Part shown: piece by piece, positions 17,729 to 55,999 of the stretch
Numbering within the stretch: the stretch's first letter is position 1
Layout: every line of letters begins with the position of its first letter
IMG/VR virus record: IMGVR_UViG_3300021364_000005
DNA: 64,000 nucleotides
From: a virus
Lineage: Duplodnaviria; Caudoviricetes
Direction: 5' to 3' (one strand)
The notes under the pieces: generated by a model
Database searches by the model: none
What the model was told of the DNA's origin: nothing
Seen by the model: the letters and a program-made list of their open reading frames with translations, nothing else
Made by a program: the position numbers and the translations under genes

Positions 17729-18142
17729 TTAATTTGTCAAGCAAAATTCTTCCTCAATATACCGTTTTAGTTCATGATCCCCGACATTTTCAGGTAGTTC
17801 TTTTTTATAAAATAGTCTATAACTGTCTGATCCGTACTTACCAATTCCGTATAGTTCTGTTGCATCATTTCCGTCCCAGTCACCGAACTGTTCACTCATG
17901 CGATATAGTCTTTCTGCTCTTATCCTACGCATACCAAGTGGTGCAATTACTTCTTCAATCTCTTTGCGTGTTGCATAAAGCAATGCTTCATGGGTTGGCC
18001 AGCGTTTGAAAAATTTAGGAAGTACAGATTTAACTTGTTTTCTTCCAGTTTGGTTGAGACATATGACACCTACCATATGCTGCCATATGTTATCTACCTG
18101 TTGTTGTACCATTAAATCGTCACGCATGGTTTCCTCATACAT
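17729..18142 (-). CDS. MBD4-like HhH-GPD DNA glycosylase
   Basis: CLNQT...PLG...ELYGIGKYGSDSYRLF...DHEL closely follows the MBD4 glycosylase-domain motifs, including the catalytic Asp. Confidence 0.85.
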   Translation of the reverse strand: MYEETMRDDLMVQQQVDNIWQHMVGVICLNQTGRKQVKSVLPKFFKRWPTHEALLYATRKEIEEVIAPLGMRRIRAERLYRMSEQFGDWDGNDATELYGIGKYGSDSYRLFYKKELPENVGDHELKRYIEEEFCLTN

Positions 18143-19114: not shown

Positions 19115-19269
19115 TATAGTCCTGCCTCCCTAGCACGTTTTTCTAAATCTACGTCTGCTTCTTTACGATTAACTGCATCGTATGAAGGATAACCTTTTTC
19201 AAATACAGGAGCTTCAAATGCTTGTTCATGCTTCTTTGCTTTCTCCACAGTCTTAGGTCCCCCATGCAT
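19114..19269 (-). CDS. Small hypothetical protein (51 aa)
   Basis: Fills the gap between queE and 18713..19114; it is the 3' part of the track ORF 19114..19671. Confidence 0.4.
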   Translation of the reverse strand: MHGGPKTVEKAKKHEQAFEAPVFEKGYPSYDAVNRKEADVDLEKRAREAGL

Positions 19270-20149
19270 TTCCGAATAAGCTAATGTGGAGTCTTGGACT
19301 GAATCGCCATCCTCGCTCCATGCACGAGTTGGCCACTTCTGCCACGTTAAGATTATACTCTTCCGAACGTCCGCCAAGCGGCATAAGATATACTGGACAC
19401 TCGACGCCTGCATCACGATATTCTTGAACAGCACGACCAACTTCTTCAAAGTCGTCCATACTAGCCACGACAAATTTAAAATACTGGCTACTGTTAGTAA
19501 CACTGGCGTAATCACTAGCAACATCAGGCAAGATAGCATCACTCCAAGATTCTCCTGAAACGGAGAGTTTAGGCGAACAACTAAATGTTGTTTTGAATCT
19601 TGCATTGTCTGAAAGATATCGCTTGAAATCTTTGTGTAAAGGTTGTGTAGTGTTTGTTTCAAATGTAACATTTTTTAAGTCCCTCATTTTCGGATGTTCA
19701 AACAGCTCGACATACAGTCGTTGCCAAGCAAGTAATGGCTCACCGCCAGTAAGAATAAGATGAATGTCTTGTCCATTATCCATAGTCCATTTACCTTCTG
19801 GTAGTAAACTAATCAAATGATCAACAACTTCATCTACTTCTGCTAGTTTGTTAAAGTGTTTAAACTCTGGATAGATGCTTGCATATGTATCACAGCCTGT
19901 ATGAATGATAGGCAAGTCCTCAAACTTTTCTGTAGTCTCGTGTACACCTGCATCGAGCAATGCTTTTACTTCTGCATTGTAACGCTGACCTTCTGCGTGC
20001 TGTTCCCAACGATCTTTTTTAGTATCAACACCAAAGTTCATACAACGAAAGTTACAACCAAAGGTACGTAGGAACACACTAGGTACTCCTACGTATTTGC
20101 CTTCGCCTTGTACGCTATAGAACGCTTCACTATACCTCAGTTTCATCAA
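19253..20149 (-). CDS. queE: 7-carboxy-7-deazaguanine synthase (radical SAM)
   Basis: E-FYSVQGEG-YVG-PSVFLRT-GCNFRC...GCDT; LTGGEP; FETN; SPKL; RLH. Confidence 0.9.
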   Translation of the reverse strand: MMKLRYSEAFYSVQGEGKYVGVPSVFLRTFGCNFRCMNFGVDTKKDRWEQHAEGQRYNAEVKALLDAGVHETTEKFEDLPIIHTGCDTYASIYPEFKHFNKLAEVDEVVDHLISLLPEGKWTMDNGQDIHLILTGGEPLLAWQRLYVELFEHPKMRDLKNVTFETNTTQPLHKDFKRYLSDNARFKTTFSCSPKLSVSGESWSDAILPDVASDYASVTNSSQYFKFVVASMDDFEEVGRAVQEYRDAGVECPVYLMPLGGRSEEYNLNVAEVANSCMERGWRFSPRLHISLFGNAWGT

Positions 20150-20414
20150 CGTCCTCCATAATATTTTCTAAATCATCAAACGATGCTACATATTTTTTAT
20201 TTGATCGATCATCTAGTACTTCTACTAATCGACTAGCAGTATCACGTGCAACCAATGCACCTGTGCTTGTGTAATTACCGTATTTTGCAACAGGTAAGTC
20301 TGCCATGCTATACATACCACCTGGACGACCAAATTGATCTAGTGGAATATCTTTTACTGTAAATGTACAGTTGTAAGATTTACCTGGGGTAATATTTTCA
20401 ATTGAAATACTCAT
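20130..20414 (-). CDS. Hypothetical protein
   Basis: ATG overlaps the folE stop (TAATG). Confidence 0.6.
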   Translation of the reverse strand: MSISIENITPGKSYNCTFTVKDIPLDQFGRPGGMYSMADLPVAKYGNYTSTGALVARDTASRLVEVLDDRSNKKYVASFDDLENIMEDVDETEV

Positions 20415-21097
20415 TAGCAAGCAAACTCCTGTTGCAGTTTAATATTGTCAAAGAACTCTTTCTTTGTACCCGGATCGTCTTTAAATGCACCTTTTAGTAC
20501 AGTTGTTTGTGTTAAACTACTATGTGCCATAATGCCACGGTTCTCACAACAACCATGTGTTGCTTGAATATACACACCTAAGTGTTCTGCATTAGTTGCT
20601 AGTTGAATTTGCTTTGCAATTTCGTTTGCAAGTTCTTCTTGCAGTGTTCCACGTCTAGCACACCACTGTGCAATACGTGTATACTTACTAAGTCCAATAA
20701 GTTTCTCAGCGGCAATAATACCAATGTATGCAGTACCTACTACTGGCTGATGATGATGTGAACACATACTTTTTAGTTCTGATCGAACTACAAGCATACC
20801 TTCGTATCGTTCTTCTGAATCATTTGGAAATGCTGTTGCACCCGGCTTTGGATCGTAACGTCCTGCCATAATTTCATTAAAGTACATTTTAGCAAGGCGT
20901 CTTGCTGTACCTTCTGAATTTGGGTCATTAAGACGATCAATTACAAGTGCATCTAGCACACTTTCGAATGCTCTAGTAGCATCGTTAATTAATTCTTCTT
21001 TATCACCACGTTGTAAGACTTGTGAAATATTATCGCCAGCCCAGTAACGGATGCCAGCGTCTTCTAGTTTTTGTTTAATTTGTCTTGCTTTGCTCAA
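20414..21097 (-). CDS. folE: GTP cyclohydrolase I
   Basis: SMCSHH, IGLSK, RR-TLQE, ATHGCCENRG; TTG start with GGAG SD. Confidence 0.95.
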   Translation of the reverse strand: MSKARQIKQKLEDAGIRYWAGDNISQVLQRGDKEELINDATRAFESVLDALVIDRLNDPNSEGTARRLAKMYFNEIMAGRYDPKPGATAFPNDSEERYEGMLVVRSELKSMCSHHHQPVVGTAYIGIIAAEKLIGLSKYTRIAQWCARRGTLQEELANEIAKQIQLATNAEHLGVYIQATHGCCENRGIMAHSSLTQTTVLKGAFKDDPGTKKEFFDNIKLQQEFAC

Positions 21098-21169: not shown

Positions 21170-21415
21170 TTAACCGTTCAATTGTTCTTTTTCATCCAAC
21201 ATATCATCAAGAAAGTATCTTTCAACAATGTCCATTTGATCTTGATATGTTGCCATTTCTGCAAGTTCTTTTTCAATTGCGTCCATGATGTCCGGGTGTT
21301 CGCCAACACCTACAGCATTTTCTAAATATACTTCAATGTTGATTTTATGTTTTTGAATATGTGCATCTGCATGAGCCATTATAGTCTCTAGCATTTTTTG
21401 TTTCATAGTTTTCAT
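21170..21415 (-). CDS. Small hypothetical protein
   Basis: 81 aa; AAGGA SD. Confidence 0.6.
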   Translation of the reverse strand: MKTMKQKMLETIMAHADAHIQKHKINIEVYLENAVGVGEHPDIMDAIEKELAEMATYQDQMDIVERYFLDDMLDEKEQLNG

Positions 21416-21428
21416 GTTAATTTTCCTT

Positions 21429-21998
21429 TTAATAACTTCCCACGTTTTCCCATGGGTACACTAACCATACATCTTTTTCTTCTTTATTAACTTCATCGCA
21501 GTAATAGTTAACCTTGTGCGAAAAGTTACTAGACAAGTTATCCGTTAGTACGGCAAAACGGACATTATTACCGAATACATTATTCCAAACATCATCGCCT
21601 GGTAAACAACTAGATTTCCAATCCTTTATAAGCCAATTAAATGTTGCACCTGTATCGTTGATGTCATCTACAATAAGTATGTTCTTTTTCTTTTGAGGAT
21701 TATGGGTAGATGTTGGATAAAGATCATCTCTATCTCTAACTTCTTCGTAACCGTATGCATCTTCGGCCATCCAACAATTACTTTCTAAATGACTATCATC
21801 GTCACGTAAAGCTATTTTAAGTGCTTCGCAACGGATACCAGTCATATTACTTATAATAGTTGCAGGCACATTGCCTCCTCTGGTTATTCCTATGATGTAA
21901 TCCGGGCGCCAATTATCAGCATACATTTGATTAACTATGCTGACACACATATTTTCTACATCAGTCCATGAATAAATCTTCTTAGAAGGGGATGTCAT
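21429..21998 (-). CDS. Type I purine phosphoribosyltransferase (gpt/hpt-like)
   Basis: IIGITRGG and the PRPP-binding ILIVDDINDTGATF; C-terminal W-VYPWE. Confidence 0.85.
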   Translation of the reverse strand: MTSPSKKIYSWTDVENMCVSIVNQMYADNWRPDYIIGITRGGNVPATIISNMTGIRCEALKIALRDDDSHLESNCWMAEDAYGYEEVRDRDDLYPTSTHNPQKKKNILIVDDINDTGATFNWLIKDWKSSCLPGDDVWNNVFGNNVRFAVLTDNLSSNFSHKVNYYCDEVNKEEKDVWLVYPWENVGSY

Positions 21999-22398
21999 CG
22001 TCTAAACCTCGTTCTTTTAATTTGCCTTTGTAATCCTGTTCGCACATTTTATATATTGTTTTGAAATTATCATATGCTTTTTTAAGTGCAGGATATTCAT
22101 CACACATATTATCTATTTTCTCTAATTCTGGCATCACATCCTTAAACTCAGTTGCAGTAATTGTAATGTTATTTAGGTCAAAAGTTACATCACTTGAGTC
22201 AACTATGCCATCTAAACTTATTGTATACATACCGTCAACGTTTGATGTTGCTAAAGTATCAGTAGTATTAATAGTAATAGTGCTTGGACTTACTGTATCA
22301 TATGCAACACTATAAGTCATATCGTCATAAGGAGAAAAGGAACTTGCCTCTTCTAGGGTGATATAAACTTGATCATCGTCGTCTTTCTTTTTAGACAT
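21982..22398 (-). CDS. Acidic hypothetical protein
   Basis: Start moved to the ATG at 22398 (MSKKKDDD). Confidence 0.55.
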   Translation of the reverse strand: MSKKKDDDDQVYITLEEASSFSPYDDMTYSVAYDTVSPSTITINTTDTLATSNVDGMYTISLDGIVDSSDVTFDLNNITITATEFKDVMPELEKIDNMCDEYPALKKAYDNFKTIYKMCEQDYKGKLKERGLDDDIPF

Positions 22399-23437
22399 CT
22401 GATATGGTCCTATATAATGCGTTTCCACTAAAATAATCTTTGTTCAGTTTCATACGCTGCTTTTCTAAACTTACAATATAATCATCGTAATTTTCCATAT
22501 AGTCAACAATCTTAGCAGTAACATTGCCTCTATATTTTCTATATGAAGAATAATCTTCAGTCCAATCACTTGGATATTTGAATTCAGGAAGTGCCATTTC
22601 GCTATAGCTTAGTCTATCTGGAACCATTGGAATAGCATCTACAAGAGCACCTTCATACCAACTAATACCAAGTGTTTCTTGTAAGTTAGCACTAAACACA
22701 AGTTTTGCTTCACCTAGCAAATTATGGTATTCATTCTTTGTAAGTGTTTGTTCTTGACAAACTATAAACTCGTATTGTGGTAATTGTGCTTTAAGATCAT
22801 GGAATATATCTACTTGTTTTTCCGGAGCAATACGATGCGGGAAAAGAATAAGATCACGCTTTTCCATACCTTTGTAACTATCTAAACTGTTCTTTAGATA
22901 CTCCATAGGCCAGCCTACACGATGAGTTTTATCATCATCTATATCTAAACTTTCAGCAAATAGATCTATATGGAAGTCACTTGCAAAGAAGTTATCGTCA
23001 TAGCATTCATACATTGACTGCTCGGCATGACGTACCCAAGGCTTGTCGCCAATTAATCTTCCGAGGAAGTCTTGGGGATCATAACTTCCGGCGTGCCATA
23101 AGCCCCCAATACGGACATCCACGCCGAGTAATTCTGCCATGTAGCGTAGTTGTATAACAGTAGGGTTCCAAGCATCTGTGTATAAAAAGTAGTCATCGGT
23201 TTTAACTGTTCCATTACAAAACATTTCTCCAATTTGTTCTAGTTGTTTTGATTTATAAACATTAGTTCCGCCAAAATTGAGAAAAGCCCCAGGCGTAGTA
23301 GCCTGCGGCGTTTCCCCTCCGCTGATAACAACGACATCTTCATTTGTAGATCGTTCGAGCTGTTGTGGAAGGTGATCCTTCCATTGCTTAGTATAGCGTG
23401 TGTCAACTGCTTCTATATCTACAATATAAATAGTCAT
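22391..23437 (-). CDS. GT-B fold glycosyltransferase (GT4-like)
   Basis: FPHRIAPEKQ donor-binding loop; Y-NLLGEAK-VFSA-LQETLGIS-YEG-LV-AIP-VPD (E-x7-E motif). Confidence 0.85.
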   Translation of the reverse strand: MTIYIVDIEAVDTRYTKQWKDHLPQQLERSTNEDVVVISGGETPQATTPGAFLNFGGTNVYKSKQLEQIGEMFCNGTVKTDDYFLYTDAWNPTVIQLRYMAELLGVDVRIGGLWHAGSYDPQDFLGRLIGDKPWVRHAEQSMYECYDDNFFASDFHIDLFAESLDIDDDKTHRVGWPMEYLKNSLDSYKGMEKRDLILFPHRIAPEKQVDIFHDLKAQLPQYEFIVCQEQTLTKNEYHNLLGEAKLVFSANLQETLGISWYEGALVDAIPMVPDRLSYSEMALPEFKYPSDWTEDYSSYRKYRGNVTAKIVDYMENYDDYIVSLEKQRMKLNKDYFSGNALYRTISDV

Positions 23438-23664: not shown

Positions 23665-24117
23665 TTATGATTGCTTAGGATAAATGTTGTGGCAGCCATT
23701 TTCTCCATCTTCGGAGACTTCGATAACAACAAAGCGGCCTGGATACTTTGTGTTAATTTCTTCATATAGGTCATCTGCAATCATCTCGCAAGACTTATAA
23801 TCAAGATTTAGTACATCATCTTTATAAAGATTTTCTAACCAGCGTTTGAACTGGATAAATTCAATTTCTCTGTCACTGTGTTTGACACTAATTGTAACTT
23901 TAAAATGGAACATATGGCGATGAGGATAACCTAAAAAGCTAACATCATACTCATCGCCTGTTGCTAGAGCAGGATCTTCTAGTGCCGCAGGATATTTATG
24001 AATTCCTTCCTTTTGAAAAGTGACCCAAATACTGCGGTTTACTTTCGATTCCATATAAATTTTCTTATCTTCTTCTCGCATCATGCGTAACATACCTTCA
24101 TAATAACGTTCTTGCAT
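23665..24117 (-). CDS. queD: QueD-like T-fold protein (6-carboxytetrahydropterin synthase or the DpdL paralog)
   Basis: Metal-binding His triad (EGIH...HRH-F), IEFIQFK, SCE-IA, V-EDGEN. Confidence 0.75.
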   Translation of the reverse strand: MQERYYEGMLRMMREEDKKIYMESKVNRSIWVTFQKEGIHKYPAALEDPALATGDEYDVSFLGYPHRHMFHFKVTISVKHSDREIEFIQFKRWLENLYKDDVLNLDYKSCEMIADDLYEEINTKYPGRFVVIEVSEDGENGCHNIYPKQS

Positions 24118-24667: not shown

Positions 24668-24867
24668 CCTAATGCCTTTAGTTCAGTTTCGAGTCTGTGT
24701 ATTTCATCTTTGAGCCAAAGTTTTTGAGTTTTAAGCCTGTTTACTTTGTTATCATCTTCCCACTTATTATACAACTCTTTTACTTCGTCGTCAAGTGCTC
24801 TATGTTTCCGATATAATTCTTGTAAATGGGTTGCAATTTTATTGTGCTTCTCAGTAAAATTACTCAT
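24664..24867 (-). CDS. DUF465/YdcH-like small coiled-coil protein
   Basis: H-ALDD-V...LKTQKLWLKDEI pattern. Confidence 0.7.
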   Translation of the reverse strand: MSNFTEKHNKIATHLQELYRKHRALDDEVKELYNKWEDDNKVNRLKTQKLWLKDEIHRLETELKALG

Positions 24868-26318
24868 TCAAACAACTCCCCAAATTTAGTTTGTGCATTT
24901 ACAGTTTTCTTACCAGTGGCACCCCGTGTGCCAATGATGCTCATCCAGAAGCGGCTGTATTCTTCTACAAGTGCTTCTGCTTTTTGCCGGTCATCCGTTG
25001 CGAATATTTCGTCCACAACATCTCTGAAAAATAGCCTGTCAAAACGCTCTTCCACAAGCATTGCCGGAAGTATTCCGTTGTCGTATTGTCTATTTGCTTC
25101 TTGTACTGCATTAATGTGCATCCATACGTTATGCCCCATCATGATAGCATATGAAAAACTATCCCATGAGGTCTTGCCTTCTTTGCCTATTTTATTTAGA
25201 TCACCTGGACCATATATACAAATATCTTTGGCTTGAAGTTCTGCTGTAATCGGACTATCCATAAAGCTAGGATGTTTGCCTTCTCGAACGAATGCTTGCC
25301 CGAACTGAGTAGTATCTTGTGCAAGTGACTTATCATCTATACTAGGCACCATTCGATATACCCATTTAGTGCGATCTTGTGTTTCAAGTTCACAATAAAT
25401 CTGTCCATTAGCAGTTGCAAGGAATGGAGAAGCACAATCAAACGTAATAGTAAAGTTTTCATTGTGATATTTGCGTACTGCTCTTTGGATATCTGTTAAT
25501 AATGTAGCCCATTCGAGCTTTGAAGTACCTAAGAAGTGCATTACATCATGTATGCCTTTCTCAAGCAATCCGTCAAATCGCAGTGCAACCAAACGCTTGA
25601 GTGCAAGATGAACATCACACATATTTTGTCCACCCATCGACCAACCGTTGAAATGATCATTTGGATATTTCTTAGGATCACAATAATCCTTCATCTGGTT
25701 GTACCAGTCATCCGCATCGGCGTGATTTTCACCTTGGAGAACATTAAGGAACTTACAAGCACCTGTTCGATGTTTCATCCAATAATCATTGTTAATACGT
25801 GTTGCTTTTACTGCTTCTGCATATGTACTAATGCCTGTTGCTTTTGCACCTTCCGGAGAACGTGCAACCCAGGCTGGAATATCAAGTATCATTCCATAGT
25901 CCATATATGCGTCCATCCACTTCAAAACGCCATCACGTTTCTTTTGTGCCTTTGGACAATTTGGATCTTTCCAGTCACCTTCCCAAACACCCTTACCAAT
26001 TTGGAAGCCACCTGAGTCACCAAGTAGCCAAGTGTTTTGTCTATCTCTATTACGCACCATGTCTTCTTTAGGAGCAAACTTATTGACATCTAAGTCAGCG
26101 TGTCCGGCACTATACAAACTCCATTTGTAAGTAAACTGTCCTTCCTGTGCATTTAGATAATTTAAACTTTCAACTCCGTGTGTAAGGTTAGAAGGTATTC
26201 TGGACTTATCCACATATTCTTCATGACGTTGCTTACCTACATAGGTAGCATAAAAGCCACTTAGTGCGGGCAAAAAACGTGCATAATCATTTTGTGTTGC
26301 GGTTAAATCTTTATTCAT
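24864..26318 (-). CDS. dpdA: TGT-fold guanine transglycosylase acting on DNA (DpdA family)
   Basis: GDSGGFQ, MILDIP, NVLQG, MGG, HFLG and FDCASP TGT motifs; clustered with folE, queD and queE. Confidence 0.85.
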   Translation of the reverse strand: MNKDLTATQNDYARFLPALSGFYATYVGKQRHEEYVDKSRIPSNLTHGVESLNYLNAQEGQFTYKWSLYSAGHADLDVNKFAPKEDMVRNRDRQNTWLLGDSGGFQIGKGVWEGDWKDPNCPKAQKKRDGVLKWMDAYMDYGMILDIPAWVARSPEGAKATGISTYAEAVKATRINNDYWMKHRTGACKFLNVLQGENHADADDWYNQMKDYCDPKKYPNDHFNGWSMGGQNMCDVHLALKRLVALRFDGLLEKGIHDVMHFLGTSKLEWATLLTDIQRAVRKYHNENFTITFDCASPFLATANGQIYCELETQDRTKWVYRMVPSIDDKSLAQDTTQFGQAFVREGKHPSFMDSPITAELQAKDICIYGPGDLNKIGKEGKTSWDSFSYAIMMGHNVWMHINAVQEANRQYDNGILPAMLVEERFDRLFFRDVVDEIFATDDRQKAEALVEEYSRFWMSIIGTRGATGKKTVNAQTKFGELFE

Positions 26319-26515: not shown

Positions 26516-27243
26516 TACTTACTCTGTGCTGGCAGGATATAGTCATACTTGGCCATACCGCTGTCTACTGAAATCATCATTGCACCTTGATCTGAGATAC
26601 TCATTGTTGCATCACCATCTAAGTTTAAAATACTTTGAACTTGTGCTACTGGCCAACTCCATGTATGTGCAAGTGTTCCTTCAATACCATGTTGGAAAAC
26701 AAACTCACCTGCGTGTGTACTTGCATCACCAAAGCTAAACACTAGATTTCCGTCTTTAGTACTAACATTAAATGTTGGTTCTTCTGAGTGTGCAGCACTC
26801 ATTAGCTTCATACGTGCAATACTTGCTACACTTGGACTAAAAGTAATCTGCCATTGTGCGCCTTTAAACTTTACAGTTTTAAGTTTTTCTTCAATAATTG
26901 CTTTGTTCATAAAGCGATAATCATTTTGAAAGTCGCCTGCTGCGTTTTCAAAGTGAATGTGTGTTGGAACAACCTCTCCATTACGTTCTGCTGTTACAAC
27001 TTCAATTTTTGCATCCTTTTGATATTCCGGATTTTTCAAATGCAAGCTAAGTTTGTCTAAATTTGGCATACCAAATGTGTCAACAAACTCTGATACAGGC
27101 GAGTGTGTTTCTGCACTTAGGATAACACTTCGATCGTCTGCCATTGAATCAATTAAAGTGCCTTCGTCGTTCTGCACTTTTACAATGCTTAGGAAGCCTA
27201 ATGCATGGGTGTGTGCAACAATGTCTTGTAAGATATCTTTCAT
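26515..27243 (-). CDS. Sliding clamp (gp45/PCNA-like)
   Basis: Size and two-domain beta pattern; ends in YDYILPAQ; own promoter; a clamp loader is in the window. Confidence 0.7.
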   Translation of the reverse strand: MKDILQDIVAHTHALGFLSIVKVQNDEGTLIDSMADDRSVILSAETHSPVSEFVDTFGMPNLDKLSLHLKNPEYQKDAKIEVVTAERNGEVVPTHIHFENAAGDFQNDYRFMNKAIIEEKLKTVKFKGAQWQITFSPSVASIARMKLMSAAHSEEPTFNVSTKDGNLVFSFGDASTHAGEFVFQHGIEGTLAHTWSWPVAQVQSILNLDGDATMSISDQGAMMISVDSGMAKYDYILPAQSK

Positions 27244-27989
27244 ACTGTTTCTCCATTCTTAAATTCTATTATATTGCCTAATTTGTTGTTTGTCAAGAGT
27301 TTTTCTACTGAGTATTTAGGTTTAAAGCCTAAACTTTTTATTTTATCCATATTGGCGCAAGTCCAACTCCGTTCATTCGGGGTATTTAGACGAATTGGCA
27401 AGTCAGGTGCAAAGTCACGGATTCTAAATGGATGGCCTGTGCCTATGTCTATTTCGCCTGTTAGTTTACTATTCATACAAAGTTCTATTGCATCACATAA
27501 ATCTTCTATATGTATAAAGTCTCTGTAATGATTAGTTACATAATCTAGTTCATTGTCTATAAGTTTTTGCAAAAACATACCTTTTCTAGGAGCATATGAG
27601 AAAACTGTATGAAATCTCATGCATAATGTATTAACATAACAAGCTGCTGCTTCTTCGACAATGTATTTGCTTGCAGCGTAAGGATTTAAATGTGGTTCGT
27701 AAATAGAACTAGAACTTGCAATTAACATACGTGTTTCTGGATAACGTTCTAATAGTCTTTTTGTGACCTCTACGTTATTACGCCAGTAGCCTGCAGGATC
27801 GTCCATACTTTCACGCACACCGCTTTTACCAGCAAGATGTATTATTAGGTCAAAGTTTTCACGTAAAGGAATATCTAATAGATCCTGACCGTCTATTAAG
27901 TCAAAGCCTACGACACTATGGTGTCGTGTGAGCCGTTTAAGCAAGTGACTTCCTATAAATCCTCTATGACCCGTTAGACATATATGCAT
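27240..27989 (-). CDS. NAD-dependent nucleotide-sugar epimerase/dehydratase (extended SDR)
   Basis: TGHRGFIGS, HLAG, SSSS, YAASK. Confidence 0.9.
   Translation of the reverse strand: MHICLTGHRGFIGSHLLKRLTRHHSVVGFDLIDGQDLLDIPLRENFDLIIHLAGKSGVRESMDDPAGYWRNNVEVTKRLLERYPETRMLIASSSSIYEPHLNPYAASKYIVEEAAACYVNTLCMRFHTVFSYAPRKGMFLQKLIDNELDYVTNHYRDFIHIEDLCDAIELCMNSKLTGEIDIGTGHPFRIRDFAPDLPIRLNTPNERSWTCANMDKIKSLGFKPKYSVEKLLTNNKLGNIIEFKNGETV
27268..27296 (-). promoter_or_regulatory. sigma70-type promoter for the clamp-dpdA unit
   Basis: TTGACA-17-TATAAT (perfect consensus), nested in the epimerase 3' end. Confidence 0.8.
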
Positions 27990-28671
27990 TTAATTTACTC
28001 CAAGTGTCTTGCCAACCATTGACACTATAATTCATACCATTTTTATTTGCTTGAGCTAATGGAAAATCATTACCATCTTCATCCATTCTATCACCAAAAA
28101 ACAAGATAGTATCGTTTTGGCTAAAATCTCGCATTATTTGGCTTTTATCTGCTCCTACAGGAAAAATATCTATTCCTGTTTCTCCGCCTACCACAGCTTC
28201 TATATCTGGAAACTTTTGTTTAAACATTTTTGCTATAGTAACTCGTTCTTCTGTTCTTTCGTCATGCTGAACATACAATTTGCGCTCACCAAGAGTTGCG
28301 TTTCTTCCTACAACACTAAAATTACACATACCAGGCCTGTCTTCTATGTGTAATCCTGTACGTAGAGGAAACTTACTTAGTGCTAATTCTTCACGCAGCC
28401 ACGCTTCTGCCTCTTCTGGTATACTCCATGTATTTGTAAAAACATTATTATTTTGCTCCCATACATCATTACCGGAACAGTTGTAAACCTTAACTGCTAA
28501 GTTGTATATTGTTGCGCCTACCTGTTCTATAGTTTTGTCTCTATCTGATCCAGTCACAAGGTACACAGCATTATGGGTTGCAAATTGTTCAAACCAAGCT
28601 GCAAATTCTTTATCCATTTTTCCACGGCTTGGGGTAAGTGTGCCGTCTACATCAAATATAAATTTAGACAT
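27964..28671 (-). CDS. Phosphomannomutase, HAD-IIB (eukaryote-type PMM-like)
   Basis: FDVDGTLTP-R; R-GM-NFS-VGR; GGETGIDIFP-G-DK; FFGDR---GND. Confidence 0.85.
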   Translation of the reverse strand: MSKFIFDVDGTLTPSRGKMDKEFAAWFEQFATHNAVYLVTGSDRDKTIEQVGATIYNLAVKVYNCSGNDVWEQNNNVFTNTWSIPEEAEAWLREELALSKFPLRTGLHIEDRPGMCNFSVVGRNATLGERKLYVQHDERTEERVTIAKMFKQKFPDIEAVVGGETGIDIFPVGADKSQIMRDFSQNDTILFFGDRMDEDGNDFPLAQANKNGMNYSVNGWQDTWSKLNAYMSNGS

Positions 28672-29083
28672 TGTTTTGCCTTTCTGCTACCCGCTTTCGC
28701 AAATCACTGGACGAGAAGCGGTGATCTCTTTTGTTAAAGTATAGCTGGATACCCCGCTTCTTGCAAATATCCTTGCCCGTAAAATCCTTTTCACGATACT
28801 CTTCTCCTAATATTCTAACATCAATTTGGTACATTGTCAAGATATCATTTAGGTCTTCTTCAGTGCCGTAAGGAATAATTTCATCTACGTACCCTACTGC
28901 TTTAAGTTGTGTATACCTTTCTACAATAGTTTGTATAGGAGAATTTTTTTCTGATCTATCTATGCTTGGATCAACCTGCAATCCACATATTAGATAGTCG
29001 CATTGTTCTTTTGCTTCACGTAACATTTGTACGTGACCTGCGTGTAATAAATCAAATGTTGAACAAGTAAATCCTACTTTCAT
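28664..29083 (-). CDS. TagD-like cytidylyltransferase
   Basis: STFDLLHAGH (HIGH), VDE-IPY, R-H-FSSS-LR. Confidence 0.9.
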   Translation of the reverse strand: MKVGFTCSTFDLLHAGHVQMLREAKEQCDYLICGLQVDPSIDRSEKNSPIQTIVERYTQLKAVGYVDEIIPYGTEEDLNDILTMYQIDVRILGEEYREKDFTGKDICKKRGIQLYFNKRDHRFSSSDLRKRVAERQNNV

Positions 29084-29796
29084 GATACAAATGCCTTTTC
29101 TTGTACAAAAGTTCCTGCTTGCTTTTTGTTACCTTCATTCCAGCCCCAGTCATTCAACATATCTTTAACATCATTATTAAAAGGCATACTACCACATATC
29201 ATAACTTTATCCTTTTCAGGTGTAGCACCAGTTAGTATTACGCCGGCACTCATTGCTGTTGTTATACGTTTATTTAGGCCCTGCCATTCTCTGTCTTGTG
29301 TAACAATGGGTGTGTAATCGATAGGAAGTTCTTGTAAGAAATCATTATATGCAAGCAATTCCGGCATACTTCGCACACTCCAAACAACATGAATATTATC
29401 AAAACTATCAAAAGTTTCCGGATCTCTTAGTAAACTGATAAATGGAGCGATTCCAGTACCAGTTGCTAACATCCATAAGTCTCCTTTTAATTCTAAATTT
29501 GCTAAAATTAAAGTACCTGTTGCTTTAGAACCTACCTCTAATTGGTCTCCAACTTTTATGTGTTGTAACTTACTTGTTAATGGGCCGTCTTGCACCTTAA
29601 TGCTATAAAACTCTAAGTAGTCATCGTATGGTCCGCTTGTAATGCTGTATGCTCTGCGTATGTCATCATCAGGAAATCCTATCATTACAAATTCTCCTGC
29701 TGTAAATCTATATGATTTAGGACGATTACATTGTATTTTAAATAACCTATCAGTGTAGTGTTCAACACTTGTCACTGTAAGAGTTTCATAGCTCAT
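29080..29796 (-). CDS. fpr: Ferredoxin(flavodoxin)-NADP+ reductase, bacterial subclass I
   Basis: RAYSI, FYSIKV-DGPLTS-LQ, ATGTGIAPF, MICGS, EKAFV C-terminus. Confidence 0.92.
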   Translation of the reverse strand: MSYETLTVTSVEHYTDRLFKIQCNRPKSYRFTAGEFVMIGFPDDDIRRAYSITSGPYDDYLEFYSIKVQDGPLTSKLQHIKVGDQLEVGSKATGTLILANLELKGDLWMLATGTGIAPFISLLRDPETFDSFDNIHVVWSVRSMPELLAYNDFLQELPIDYTPIVTQDREWQGLNKRITTAMSAGVILTGATPEKDKVMICGSMPFNNDVKDMLNDWGWNEGNKKQAGTFVQEKAFVS

Positions 29797-30041
29797 TTAT
29801 CTTCCTCTGGTAGTTTTATTACATTATTTTCATTAGCAAGCATATTTTCCTTAATGTCATATACTTGCTCGCTTTTAATCATATTAATAATTGTATTTGT
29901 CAAACTTACTTCTTGGCGTAAGTATCCAATCTTACGTTGCAATTCTTCTAGCTCTTTTAGATAAAATTCTAATTCTTGTTCCTTACGTAACTTCTGTTCA
30001 ATAAAGTCAGTAATTAGAATTAGTTTTTGTTCTTCGCTCAT
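29793..30041 (-). CDS. Coiled-coil hypothetical protein
   Basis: ATGA coupling at 30041. Confidence 0.6.
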   Translation of the reverse strand: MSEEQKLILITDFIEQKLRKEQELEFYLKELEELQRKIGYLRQEVSLTNTIINMIKSEQVYDIKENMLANENNVIKLPEEDK

Positions 30042-30316
30042 TGCACTAGCGTACTCCATTTACGAAGTTTTTCACGTTTGACGTTAGCTCTATCTTCCAA
30101 GTCAATCCATTTGCAAACATTATGTTGCACCATAAGTTCTAGCATACAATAAACGTCACCAAGTTCTTCGATTAGCTTTTGCTCTTGATCGTATTCAATT
30201 TCGTTTACAGTGTTGTATTTCCGCATAATTTTACTACAACGTTGTGTTAGTTCACCACATTCTTCCATAGTAATACACATAAGTTGTTGTAAATCATTGA
30301 TAGGGCTGTCTTCCAT
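30038..30316 (-). CDS. MazG-like NTP pyrophosphohydrolase
   Basis: EECGEL...EELGDV; start moved to the ATG at 30316 after GGAGA. Confidence 0.75.
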   Translation of the reverse strand: MEDSPINDLQQLMCITMEECGELTQRCSKIMRKYNTVNEIEYDQEQKLIEELGDVYCMLELMVQHNVCKWIDLEDRANVKREKLRKWSTLVQ

Positions 30317-30317
30317 T

Positions 30318-33011
30318 TTAATCTCCAAAGTCAAATAAACTTGTAAATGTGTTAGATTGTTTTGTGCTATCGATATCATAGTTTAGCACACCAATTAAGT
30401 TATCAATTTTATTATCAATAATAGTTGCTTCCATAGCATCGCCATCAAATGGCAATTCTTTGAACCAATCTGGCAAACGCAATTCATCTGTTGGATATGC
30501 AACACTTGTATACCCTAATGGATTCTGCTTGAGTTTGCACACAATAACTTTCATACCATCTACAATCTCTTGCGAATACTTGTCACCATTCATACGCTTC
30601 AGTGTGTTCCAGTTAATGCTTGCTCTAACGTGCCCTGGCATATTTGCCTTGCCTTGCTTTTCTTCAAGACGCTGATAGTGCCCAATTTTGTTAGCACGTT
30701 TAGGAGCACCTTTTTCCCAACCCGGTCTATTTTTAAAATCACGCCTAAAGTCAGTAATACGTTCTAGTATTTCTTTTTCGCCTTTTTCTTGTAGTACCAT
30801 CATCAGCACTTCGCTTAGAAACTCTTGCATATACACAGGTGTGTCTGATCTACGCAAGTCTAAGCCCATTGCTTTTACTTTGCCTGGCTTGCCATCTGTG
30901 TCTGAACGGAAGCCTTCAACATCATATACCAATGCTGCATAACGTTTCTTTGTAATGTACAAGCCGCTTTCAGCAACAATCTCTCTACCTGCTGCAATAA
31001 CGTCTGATCGGCTCTTTGGACAGTGAAATGCTTTTTGCATAAAGTCTTGGAATGTGCTATTTGCCTCTTCTGCGACTTGATCATATAGAGTAATTACATT
31101 GTCTTTACTCCATGGAATAGATCCGTTGTCAATTTGTTGTTTTAATACAGGATATGCACTAAAATACACAGAGTCTGTATCACCATATATTACGCTTTCA
31201 CCTACATGATCATAGGATCCTGTAATAACTTTGTTAACTTCTGCTGACATATGCTTTACAATAGTACGGCCTGATAATGTAGTACTTTGTCCAATACGTT
31301 TATCAAAAAAGCGACAGCCAGGGTTAAGAATGGCACCATAAAGACTGTTAAGGTTAATTTTCTTAACCAACTGACGTTTGTCCCAAAAAGCGATTTCTGC
31401 TTCATTTCCTGCATCCTTTGCTTTCTTAAGCATTTTCTGTAGATCTTTTCTTTCCGCATACCACCTCTTTAGAATTCCAGGAATAACACCTTCAAATTCT
31501 GTTGTAAAAATTGTGCCATTTGAACTTAGCATCCAAGGCATATTACTGTCAAATATTAGTTTGTAAATTTCTGCTCCACTTAGTACGTCTGAACGACCGT
31601 CTTCCCAGTCAATAGTTAGAGCAATGTCTTTGCGTTGGTCCATAACTGCTTCATATTCTTCTGTACTGAAGCGTCCTTCCCATGAACCTGCAAATGACTT
31701 TTTCTTAAGCGTCATATCTTCATGAACACGAGCTTCTGACATCTCAGGACGTATTTGTCCTACAATAGTTTCTGGAGCCATATTCAATGCACGAATCACA
31801 CTTGGATACAGACTGTTCAAGTCCATTGAACCAATCCATTTGTGAACACCTTTTTTAGGAAATGCAACATAAGCACCAGCGGCTGCTGTATTCTCATCAT
31901 CACGCTTTGGACGATTAGGAACTTGTAATCCTCTATCATGTGCTTCATTAATAATTGCTTGTTCTGTAACAGCAACAGCACCCATAGTTGTTTGTAGCAA
32001 AACAGTATTTGCGTGTGCCAGCTCGTTTGAAAGATCAATAAATCTTAGTTTTTTGTCCAGCTTGTCTAGTAGTGCAACGTCTTGTCTATTATATTCGATA
32101 AATGTTTCAAAGTCGTTGTTGTATAACTGATCAAGTGTTCCTTCATATACTGTTTTACGTTCACCAACTTCAAGTTCGCCAATAGCATCAAGACGATATG
32201 TGTGTCTTTCTTCATATGTGTATTTGCGATATAATTCTAAACTGTCTAAATGCACTCTGCCCACAAAGTCATAAGTTTCACTTGTTTTTCCAAACTTTTC
32301 GTATTCACGTTTTTTAGGCAGTTGTCCCCATAAGCAAAAACGTCTTGTGTCATCTGTACTTAAAACACGTTTAATTCTGTTAACAGTATACGGAACATCA
32401 TAACCTTCACTATTCCAGCCACTAAAGATATCTGCATCCTCTAGCAAATCAAGGAATGTAAGAAGCATTTGTCTCTCACCATTTCCTTCTTTGTCGTTTG
32501 GATATAAAATAACATCATCGCCCCAGCGATCTTTACACATTTTTTGTGCTTCTTCAAAAGGTAATCCCTTTGGCGGAACTGCAAGTGTAATAAGTGCATC
32601 GAGCCATTGTAAATGTACAGTGATAGCTGTAATTGGCATAAACGGATCTTCAACTGGAGCAAATCCTCGCTCTGGATCAAAGTCGGTCTCGATATCCCAA
32701 AACGCAACATTTAATTTAGGTGCGTCTTGATTAAGATAATTTTCACTTAAACATTGAAATATTGGATTAATATCGCTTTCGAATAAGTCTTTGCCTTTGT
32801 TTATTGCAATTTCTTTACGAAAGTCTTTTGTATTTTTGCAAACAATACGTGTTAGATTGTCGCCATATACACTTTTGTATTTGCCACGTTCGTCTTTATA
32901 ATAAAACGTGTATTTTGCTTGGTATTCTCTAAAATCTCTTTTACCATCTTTGCGTTCAACACATCTAATAATGTCTTGGTCGCGATCAAAGAAAGCATCT
33001 ACGTAACTCAT
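30318..33011 (-). CDS. polB: Family B DNA polymerase (gp43-like)
   Basis: ExoI WDIETD, DLNSLYPS, K-NLNSLYG, YGDTDS, KKRY; no intein visible. Confidence 0.97.
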   Translation of the reverse strand: MSYVDAFFDRDQDIIRCVERKDGKRDFREYQAKYTFYYKDERGKYKSVYGDNLTRIVCKNTKDFRKEIAINKGKDLFESDINPIFQCLSENYLNQDAPKLNVAFWDIETDFDPERGFAPVEDPFMPITAITVHLQWLDALITLAVPPKGLPFEEAQKMCKDRWGDDVILYPNDKEGNGERQMLLTFLDLLEDADIFSGWNSEGYDVPYTVNRIKRVLSTDDTRRFCLWGQLPKKREYEKFGKTSETYDFVGRVHLDSLELYRKYTYEERHTYRLDAIGELEVGERKTVYEGTLDQLYNNDFETFIEYNRQDVALLDKLDKKLRFIDLSNELAHANTVLLQTTMGAVAVTEQAIINEAHDRGLQVPNRPKRDDENTAAAGAYVAFPKKGVHKWIGSMDLNSLYPSVIRALNMAPETIVGQIRPEMSEARVHEDMTLKKKSFAGSWEGRFSTEEYEAVMDQRKDIALTIDWEDGRSDVLSGAEIYKLIFDSNMPWMLSSNGTIFTTEFEGVIPGILKRWYAERKDLQKMLKKAKDAGNEAEIAFWDKRQLVKKINLNSLYGAILNPGCRFFDKRIGQSTTLSGRTIVKHMSAEVNKVITGSYDHVGESVIYGDTDSVYFSAYPVLKQQIDNGSIPWSKDNVITLYDQVAEEANSTFQDFMQKAFHCPKSRSDVIAAGREIVAESGLYITKKRYAALVYDVEGFRSDTDGKPGKVKAMGLDLRRSDTPVYMQEFLSEVLMMVLQEKGEKEILERITDFRRDFKNRPGWEKGAPKRANKIGHYQRLEEKQGKANMPGHVRASINWNTLKRMNGDKYSQEIVDGMKVIVCKLKQNPLGYTSVAYPTDELRLPDWFKELPFDGDAMEATIIDNKIDNLIGVLNYDIDSTKQSNTFTSLFDFGD

Positions 33012-55639: not shown

Positions 55640-55999
55640 TTAGTCTCCTATAAATTGTGCAAGTTCTGGAGCCTTCCATCCTTGTGGCTTCAGCACCTTG
55701 CCATCTTCACGTTTACGAACTTTGCCTGTGTCGGGATCAATCTTTGCAAAGTTTGTATCCATTACTTCTTTCCACGCACCTTCGCCGTCAAAGCCGCCTG
55801 CACGAATAGCACCCATAGTAACAACAAGAATATCAATAAGTGCATCAAGTTGTTCCACAGTATCATTTGCTTCAACTGCTTCTTGTAGTTCTTCGTATTC
55901 TTCTTTGATCAAACTGAGGTACATTTTGTAGTTTGCTTCACTAGGTTCTTGATCACACGCAGAACCAAACGTGTCAATATCTTTAAATGGATTTGTCAT
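55640..55999 (-). CDS. All-alpha NTP pyrophosphatase (MazG/DR2231-like)
   Basis: LIKEEYEEL...EQLDALID; V---NFAK; R-DGKVLKP-GW--P. Confidence 0.8.
   Translation of the reverse strand: MTNPFKDIDTFGSACDQEPSEANYKMYLSLIKEEYEELQEAVEANDTVEQLDALIDILVVTMGAIRAGGFDGEGAWKEVMDTNFAKIDPDTGKVRKREDGKVLKPQGWKAPELAQFIGD

Follow-up and report, generated by a model that had tools for sequence, protein, structure and literature searches.

Complete replacement of guanine (G) in DNA has been described in three phages, namely phiST, immuto_2-6A and CP220, in which the modified nucleosides are those of 7-deazaguanine (DG; nucleoside dDG), of formylated 7-aminomethyl-7-deazaguanine (formyl-preQ1; fdPreQ1) and of 7-amido-7-deazaguanine (ADG; dADG), respectively (PMC10516641). 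In the phiST system DpdL is the proposed decarboxylase of 7-carboxy-7-deazaguanine (CDG) (Cui, Hutinet et al. 2023, PMC10516641), and after DpdA3 and DpdL had failed to reconstitute the modification in Escherichia coli, the authors suspected that enzymes were missing (PMC10516641). A related set of genes serves the synthesis of tubercidin and toyocamycin in Streptomyces, where TubE (194 aa) is a homologue of purine phosphoribosyltransferases (PRTs), is encoded in a FolE-QueD-QueE cluster without QueC, and acts on CDG and 5-phosphoribosyl 1-pyrophosphate (PRPP) in vitro (PMC6112128). Here we analyse a gene for a purine-type PRT (P0001, 189 aa; 21429..21998, minus strand) that stands in a 7-deazaguanine cluster of the IMG/VR virus record IMGVR_UViG_3300021364_000005 (Duplodnaviria; Caudoviricetes); the 64,000-nt stretch that was analysed is called the window below, and it belongs to an uncultured marine jumbo phage.

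The window shares with the DpdL/DpdA3 system of phiST (PMC10516641) FolE, QueE, a DpdL homologue, a homologous PRT and the lack of QueC; unlike in phiST, its PRT gene lies inside the cluster, its candidate transglycosylase has 484 aa and is not demonstrably a DpdA3, and a 348-aa protein is added. It resembles the TubE and ToyH clusters in that a small purine-PRT homologue accompanies FolE, QueD and QueE without QueC, the link between the proteins being an alignment of TubE with Sulfolobus 4Z1O made by the TubE authors (PMC6112128). TubE, however, leads to a free nucleoside antibiotic and its cluster has no enzyme for insertion into nucleic acid, whereas the cluster of the window holds a candidate enzyme resembling tRNA-guanine transglycosylase (TGT). 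A third group for comparison consists of the PRT-FolE fusions of the Queuovirinae type, such as that of Vibrio phage 033B, whose PRT domain is homologous to the window PRT and is paired, as in the window, with FolE, within an operon of deazaguanine genes. In these phages the PRT is a mini-domain of ~110 residues and the operons have QueC and an ordinary DpdA, whereas the window PRT is a separate protein of 189 aa with a large insertion.

We regard it as an even call that the gene encodes an active 6-oxopurine (guanine-type) PRT which would help 7-deazaguanine modification of DNA by converting the guanine expelled in base exchange to GMP. A functional tie of the PRT to the deazaguanine system had been the shared premise of both roles offered for it by an earlier sequence-only reading of this DNA, and this premise is strongly supported by its recurrent neighbourhoods in unrelated phages and by the PRT-FolE fusions. 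The PRT accompanies these systems, to the point of being fused to FolE, and this makes it a concrete candidate for the missing helper. The word 'phosphoribosyl' occurs neither in Hutinet et al. 2019 nor in Cui et al. 2023 (PMC10516641), and our literature searches on DpdA or deazaguanine together with PRT found no paper on a phage PRT.

Fold, active site and relatives of the PRT

The window protein is a type I PRT, closest to archaeal 6-oxopurine PRTs and those of the xanthine-guanine PRT (XGPRT) type. Its open reading frame (ORF) starts with ATG, and the protein matches the Pfam model PF00156 with 36.4 bits (cut-off 26.3). The conserved pyrophosphate (RGG) loop is R40-G41-G42 in a TRGG context; the PRPP-binding motif ILIVDDINDTGAT (residues 107-119; VDDINDTGAT in short) is made up of a hydrophobic strand, two acidic residues and xxTGxT; and the C-terminus carries WLVYPWE. 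An AlphaFold2 (AF2) model was obtained with a pLDDT of 95.2, and Foldseek matched it to 369 PDB entries at E <= 0.001, the best 50 of which are all purine PRTs; among the matches named are 1vdm, the Sulfolobus hypoxanthine-guanine-xanthine PRT (HGXPRT; 4z1o), XGPRTs and yeast hypoxanthine-guanine PRT (HGPRT). Among solved structures, the closest in sequence are the Pyrococcus horikoshii purine PRT (1vdm), Sulfolobus GpT-2 HGXPRT 4z1o, Sulfolobus GpT-1, yeast HGPRT and XGPRTs, and a profile built from 96 family members found 1vdm in the PDB at E 4.6e-24, followed by 4z1o as the second at E 3.8e-21. The PDB relatives also include 5vog, a PRT-like protein in complex with ppGpp.

Compared with archaeal and XGPRT-type 6-oxopurine PRTs (P. 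horikoshii 1VDM; S. solfataricus HGXPRT 4Z1O/5BQO; E. coli XGPRT 1A95), the window PRT has the same type I fold, RGG loop, acidic pair with 'DTG.T' and C-terminal 'W..(F/Y)PWE'. It differs from them in being only 20-23% identical, in an insertion of ~40 residues, in an Asn in place of the Lys that binds the purine O6, and in its setting in a DNA-modification cluster. The insertion is conserved, occupies the position of the flexible loop, and reads ESNxWMAEDAYGY in the window PRT and ESNxWMAEDAFGY in the family. In HGPRT and XGPRT the Asp of 'DTG' touches N7 of the purine (Asp137 of the human HGPRT, Asp92 of the E. coli XGPRT), and we take D115 of the window PRT to hold this position; D115 is retained by 120 of 120 close homologues and by every phage lineage in the alignment.

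A search of a 5.8-billion-protein collection returned 7,324 homologues; the family, with over 7,000 members, abounds in marine viromes. The best 120 share 68-83% identity with the window PRT, and 120/120 retain the RGG loop, the DD pair and the Asp of 'DTG'; with more than 7,300 homologues, and every catalytic motif present in the best of them, the PRT gene is not a chance ORF. The gpt/hpt-like PRT near folE that the sequence-only reading had proposed is therefore real, with a PF00156 match, intact motifs and a single 81-aa ORF between it and FolE. Among distant representatives (below 50% identity) ~45% have a degenerate RGG loop, acidic pair or DTG/PRPP motif, and these members may be pseudo-enzymes or have changed function. 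Degenerate representatives (P0129, P0135, P0148, P0156, P0158, P0162, P0169, P0171, P0249 and others) retain the ESNxWMAEDAFGY insertion, the Trp residues and FPWE. The wider family thus probably includes non-enzymes, and the window PRT is probably not one of them.

Cellular homologues were sought among one genome per prokaryote species. Those at ~30% identity are encoded in Sphingomonadales and marine Bacteroidetes by single genes on the chromosome, none of which has a deazaguanine gene as its neighbour; they share the hallmarks of the subfamily and reach 41-45 bits on the Gpt model. In four Sphingomonadales genomes (L248, L222, L235 and L224) nothing scored above cut-off for the Gpt, Hpt and HGPRT models, and the subfamily PRT was the sole match to them, so that it is probably the housekeeping 6-oxopurine PRT of Sphingomonadales. 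PRT, FolE and DpdL also occur together on contigs of metagenome-assembled genomes, namely L200 (PBPT01000016.1, 335 kb, 'Candidatus Neomarinimicrobiota'), L199 and L201 (Crocinitomicaceae) and L203, the PRT being 46-63% identical to that of the window, or 36% in L203, and QueE being present in L200, L201 and L203. These contigs look like jumbo-phage contigs that were binned into bacterial genomes.

Recurrence beside deazaguanine genes and fusion to FolE

At least seven phage lineages, with shuffled gene orders, have a homologous PRT within their set of deazaguanine genes or next to it. With the window PRT as the query, tblastn against 50,697 cultured-phage records gave weak matches in the phiST and CP220/CP21 groups, in Synechococcus phage BUCT-ZZ01 and in two Brevundimonas phages. 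The phiST PRT matched only 34 of these 50,697 records, which comprise 15 Campylobacter Firehammervirus phages, five of the phiST group, four of the Flavobacterium immuto_2-6A group, five Vibrio Queuovirinae (with PRT-FolE fusions), two Brevundimonas phages, BUCT-ZZ01 and two unannotated records. Deazaguanine genes were found in at least 27 of the 34, apart from the five Queuovirinae fusions and the two unannotated records. The PRTs of the compared phage lineages are mutually homologous, and the catalytic set is full in all cultured-phage homologues compared; in the viral structure library the closest low-rmsd match of the window PRT is the phiST PRT CGPG_00045 (TM 0.85, rmsd 2.8).

The PRT gene adjoins FolE, or lies one or two small ORFs away from it, in immuto_2-6A, StAshley, BUCT-ZZ01 and the window. 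The orders are QueE-PRT-x-QueD-FolE...DpdL in BUCT-ZZ01, QueD-x-QueE-x-x-PRT-FolE-x-PRA-PH-x-DpdA-x-DpdN-kinase-QueF in immuto_2-6A (PRA-PH, phosphoribosyl-ATP pyrophosphohydrolase) and QueC-QueD-QueE-x-x-PolA-x-RNR-RNR-dNMP kinase-FolE-PRT in Brevundimonas phage StAshley (RNR, ribonucleotide reductase). Elsewhere they are DpdL-x-x-PRT-QueE in Pseudomonas jumbo phage PA5oct, where a 144-aa ORF without annotation encodes the PRT, PRT-x-radical SAM (S-adenosylmethionine) enzyme in CP220, and FolE-x-x-x-PRT-x-QueE-like beside a metagenomic homologue of 38% identity; in phiST the PRT gene (CGPG_00045) lies 18 kb off the cluster, three genes from RNR. The StAshley genes form an 11-kb block (ON529865.1 4468-15775) in which deazaguanine genes are mixed with nucleotide-pool enzymes, and which also holds a 266-aa protein weakly similar to DpdA3. 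In PA5oct the PRT is EST35_0321, listed as 'hypothetical protein' (L089:10178-10612) and recognised through PF00156 at 43.9 bits; as a cultured phage, PA5oct is a tractable model for a PRT knockout.

In Vibrio phage 033B the protein annotated as 'folE' (OP331229.1 13053-13955, L117:5821-6723; 300 aa) consists of a mini-PRT of ~110 residues followed by GTP cyclohydrolase I, and the operon order is queE-queC-queD-(PRT-folE)-dpdA. The mini-PRT has the motifs PRGG, VDDIIDSGAT and WVVFPWE, and hhalign matched it to the alignment of phage PRTs with a probability of 98% (E 1.6e-13). This N-terminal domain occurs in at least 241 proteins, all of which carry PF01227; PF00156 misses most of them.

Proposed guanine recycling and its rivals

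According to the scheme that we prefer, guanine recycling, a TGT-like enzyme would put a 7-deazaguanine base in the place of G in phage DNA and release free guanine, the PRT would join this guanine to PRPP to give GMP, host kinases would raise GMP to GTP, and FolE, QueD, QueE and DpdL would convert GTP to the next deazaguanine base. Removal by the PRT of guanine that could be re-inserted would pull the exchange towards completion, and the loop would be closed, guanine being recycled for one PRPP per exchanged base. As full exchange of G would free as much guanine as deazaguanine is inserted, and each inserted base costs one GTP, the PRT would both clear the product and refill the precursor. 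If this holds, a guanine sink with a recycling loop would explain how base exchange runs to completion.

Recycling is favoured over deazaguanine ribosylation, the other role that had been offered for the PRT and the lesser of the two in spite of its precedent in TubE. The fusion to FolE and the adjacency to its gene favour recycling, FolE being the GTP-consuming entry enzyme, as does the fact that a single PRT family accompanies systems with DG, ADG and formyl-preQ1 as their products, guanine being the base common to all. The retained Asp for contact with N7, the housekeeping-like cellular relatives and a patchy, dispensable distribution are likewise in its favour, and we have also counted for it the salvage genes that accompany the PRT in a relative of the window phage described below.

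The distribution was assessed in DpdL-anchored IMG/VR loci with at least 6 kb downstream, in which FolE was present in 49/51 and the PRT in 35/51. The PRT is thus an accessory gene, absent in about 30% of the relatives in the clade, and PF00156 was found nowhere in the genomes of Sinorhizobium phage Phosso, ACP17, RHph_I1_18 and Bakedbeans, all of which have DpdL clusters. Such patchiness is expected of a booster under guanine recycling, because a host Gpt or Hpt can replace it. A PRT-FolE fusion standing in for the PRT in the loci that lack it was considered and rejected, no fused FolE being present in any of them. In the relative IMGVR_UViG_3300006916_000041 (L012:6721-16081) the PRT gene lies in a salvage-flavoured block with a PnrA/Bmp-like nucleoside-binding protein and thymidine kinase; the block also holds a second PRT that resembles adenine PRT (APRT) (VIVDDLVATGGS), three 2-oxoglutarate (2OG) oxygenases, UDP-glucose dehydrogenase, a QueE-like protein and SAM synthetase.

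Several points weigh against guanine recycling. Fusion to FolE cannot serve substrate channelling, because the step from GMP to GTP takes two kinase reactions. The window PRT reaches 37.2 bits on the Gpt equivalog model (NCBIfam NF006613) against a cut-off of 138, and 19.3 bits on the Hpt equivalog model (TIGR01203) against 150, so that neither equivalog score is attained; lying so far below the Gpt cut-off, it is a divergent relative and no ordinary Gpt. The exocyclic O6 of the purine is bound by a Lys, K115 in E. coli XGPRT and K165 in human HGPRT, and this Lys of XGPRT, 1vdm (where it stands in 'AMKPW') and HGPRT aligns to Asn154 of the window PRT. The position is Lys in the PRTs of phiST, immuto and StAshley, Arg in that of CP220 and Thr/Arg in that of PA5oct; Asn is found here also in cellular members of the subfamily, and the change from Lys to Asn is for that reason unable to separate a guanine substrate from a deazapurine one. 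Complete base replacement elsewhere is a hallmark of routes through the dNTP pool, and members of the PRT family occur in each of the three groups of phages that replace 100% of G. Pyrophosphatases of the MazG/PRA-PH type and (d)NMP kinases are found in the phiST, immuto and StAshley clusters. TubE uses CDG, not guanine (PMC6112128), while in E. coli no dDG was formed when only dpdL and dpdA3 were supplied, and the ADG nucleoside has been cited in infected cells (PMC10516641).

Much of this would fit a tentative alternative, in which the PRT resembles TubE and ToyH and joins CDG or DG to PRPP; the resulting 7-deaza-GMP analogue would be raised by kinases and RNR to a dNTP that PolB incorporates, and modification would be pre-replicative. 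The QueC-less setting of TubE and its activity on CDG are the precedent, and 4Z1O, with which its authors aligned TubE, is also the second-best PDB relative of the window PRT. The same alternative gains from the occurrence of the PRT family in the phiST, immuto_2-6A and CP220 groups, all fully replaced, from the way in which, in phiST, immuto and StAshley, genes for NTP pyrophosphatases, (d)NMP kinases, RNR and polymerase are interleaved with those for the PRT and the deazaguanine pathway, from the failure of dpdL and dpdA3 alone to yield dDG (PMC10516641), and from the replacement of the O6-binding Lys by Asn, Arg or Thr/Arg in the window, CP220 and PA5oct PRTs. A TGT-like enzyme is nevertheless retained in all these phages, although it would be redundant under a nucleotide route, and the PRT is missing in ~30% of the clade and in several cultured DpdL phages, where a host PRT would be an unlikely substitute for a step specific to deazapurines. 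The ribosylating PRT would, moreover, have to act on another substrate in every lineage (DG, CDG, ADG or preQ1), and it would keep everywhere the Asp that contacts N7 although a 7-deaza base has no N7. Its fusion partner is the entry enzyme FolE rather than the last enzyme to form the base, the fused form occurs in Queuovirinae with an ordinary DpdA, and the MazG-like genes of the window are not conserved. We know of no phage PRT with activity on CDG. That the PRT is the phage counterpart of TubE, acting on CDG or DG, and that the fully substituted phages (phiST, CP220, immuto and the marine clade) polymerise from a 7-deaza-dGTP pool appears doubtful to us; if true, such a PRT would uncover a pre-replicative route to the complete replacement of G.

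The two all-alpha NTP pyrophosphatases that the sequence-only reading had pointed out, the first directly after polB, are both genuine superfamily members by Pfam. The first is a MazG-like NTP pyrophosphohydrolase of 113 aa (30038..30379, minus strand), borderline with 22.4 bits on PF03819 (cut-off 22), whose gene overlaps the 3' end of PolB (30318-33011), and the second is a PRA-PH/MazG-superfamily NTP pyrophosphohydrolase of 119 aa (55640..55999, minus strand; PF01503, 38.5 bits). A partnership of these enzymes with the PRT is not supported, since neither is conserved in relatives: the 113-aa gene was found in 0/80 related flanks and in 1/5 long relatives, there at a different place, and the 119-aa gene in 0/5 long relatives. 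A different MazG lies elsewhere in 3/7 relatives. NTP pyrophosphatases beside FolE were noted in immuto_2-6A (gp208, L118:10419-10943, PRA-PH, 40.8 bits) and in phiST (CGPG_00068, L093:888-1475, MazG, 27 bits).

Less probable is that the PRT is a generic purine-salvage auxiliary gene, which would supply GMP or IMP from degraded host nucleic acid and would lie near FolE because accessory genes gather in that stretch, untied to modification. The stretch from the 348-aa gene to FolE/QueE does vary among relatives (2OG oxygenases, HIT protein, thymidine kinase, APRT-like PRT, UDP-glucose dehydrogenase), and part of the clade does without the PRT. Against this we set at least 27 of the 34 records matched by the phiST PRT that have deazaguanine genes, five more with fusions and PA5oct as one further case; at least seven lineages with differing orders, together with the widespread FolE fusion, far exceed chance placement, and we judge generic salvage improbable. 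A protein with the PRT fold that acts without catalysis or as a regulator, for instance by sensing guanine nucleotides or (p)ppGpp and adjusting FolE or the exchange enzyme, would suit the degenerate ~45% of distant representatives, the ppGpp-bound 5vog among the relatives and a FolE fusion ill-suited to channelling, but it is most improbable given the full catalytic set of the window PRT, of 120/120 close homologues and of all compared cultured-phage homologues.

The deazaguanine cluster of the window and its clade

In the order of the coding strand, the DpdL-like gene is followed by the 348-aa gene, a 148-aa ORF, the PRT gene, the 81-aa ORF and FolE, all co-oriented. The same synteny around the PRT was found in 80 IMG/VR loci, and the counts of related loci given over 80 for the PRT flanks refer to these. 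The 148-aa ORF (21982..22428, minus strand) has no family match and was found in 44/80 related loci; the 17-nt overlap between its stop and the start of the PRT gene is suggestive of translational coupling. The 81-aa ORF (21170..21415, minus strand; phrog_1811) starts 13 nt past the PRT stop and follows the PRT in 61/80 related loci. FolE (20414..21097, minus strand), GTP cyclohydrolase I and the first step of 7-deazaguanine synthesis, matches PF01227 with 132.5 bits, and beyond it lies a QueE-like radical SAM enzyme (7-carboxy-7-deazaguanine synthase; 19253..20149, minus strand; phrog_2076, 1.9e-50).

Upstream of the PRT, the conserved 348-aa protein (22391..23437, minus strand) has homologues in the DpdL clusters of Phosso (annotated as glycosyltransferase), PA5oct, ACP17 and BUCT-ZZ01; PDB searches with this protein and with its 148-aa neighbour were empty. 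The DpdL-like T-fold protein, a paralogue of QueD (23665..24117, minus strand), is 71% identical to that of Phosso, 57% to ACP17 DpdL and 31% to phiST CGPG_00067. DpdL is marked by LxxxHRHxF where QueD has CxxxHGH (PMC10516641), and the peptide pattern HRHMF is present in the window protein. In a 268-kb relative (G001) QueD is encoded elsewhere in the genome, and no convincing match to QueC was found in five relatives; the system of the window is therefore of the QueC-less DpdL type.

The candidate DNA transglycosylase is a DpdA-like protein of 484 aa (24864..26318, minus strand) with the motifs D101-SGGFQ, L194-QGE and F293-DCxSP...A303-NG in this order. Within its family D-S-G-G-F-Q, L-Q-G-E and F-D-C-x-x-P...A-x-N-G are invariant, and we take them to be the TGT signatures, including both catalytic Asp residues. 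In an hhalign comparison with the DpdA3 set the motifs line up in a weak match (E 0.02, probability 2%), the comparison with 033B DpdA was also weak, and an Atlas feature search places the protein near a TGT-like cluster. It has no match in Pfam or in the PDB, a profile search of the PDB included, and its AF2 model is poor (pLDDT 43). Single-sequence searches across phage genomes with phiST DpdA3 and with the 484-aa protein found nothing, and the Pfam TGT model PF01702 had no match in the relatives or in the PRT-bearing cultured phages; the silence of PF01702 is uninformative, because it also misses the accepted DpdA3 of phiST. On this motif-level support the protein is probably a DpdA-type transglycosylase, and a protein with the TGT motifs is kept in 77/80 DpdL-anchored loci.

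The PolB of the window is 49% identical to that of Phosso and 42-46% to those of Rak2/121Q-like phages, and relatives of the window phage are as long as 339 kb. Just downstream of the cluster lies a gene for a 137-aa DNA glycosylase of the HhH-GPD type (17729-18142, minus strand), an identical gene in L001 matching PF00730; in modified DNA the enzyme may be relevant to the handling of G or of abasic sites. A run of sugar-nucleotide genes (27240-29796, minus strand) that separates PolB from the cluster encodes an NAD-dependent epimerase/dehydratase, a phosphomannomutase of the PMM type, a cytidylyltransferase-like protein and an FAD/NAD oxidoreductase, and at this position the relatives carry a different set of genes, which includes UDP-glucose dehydrogenase.

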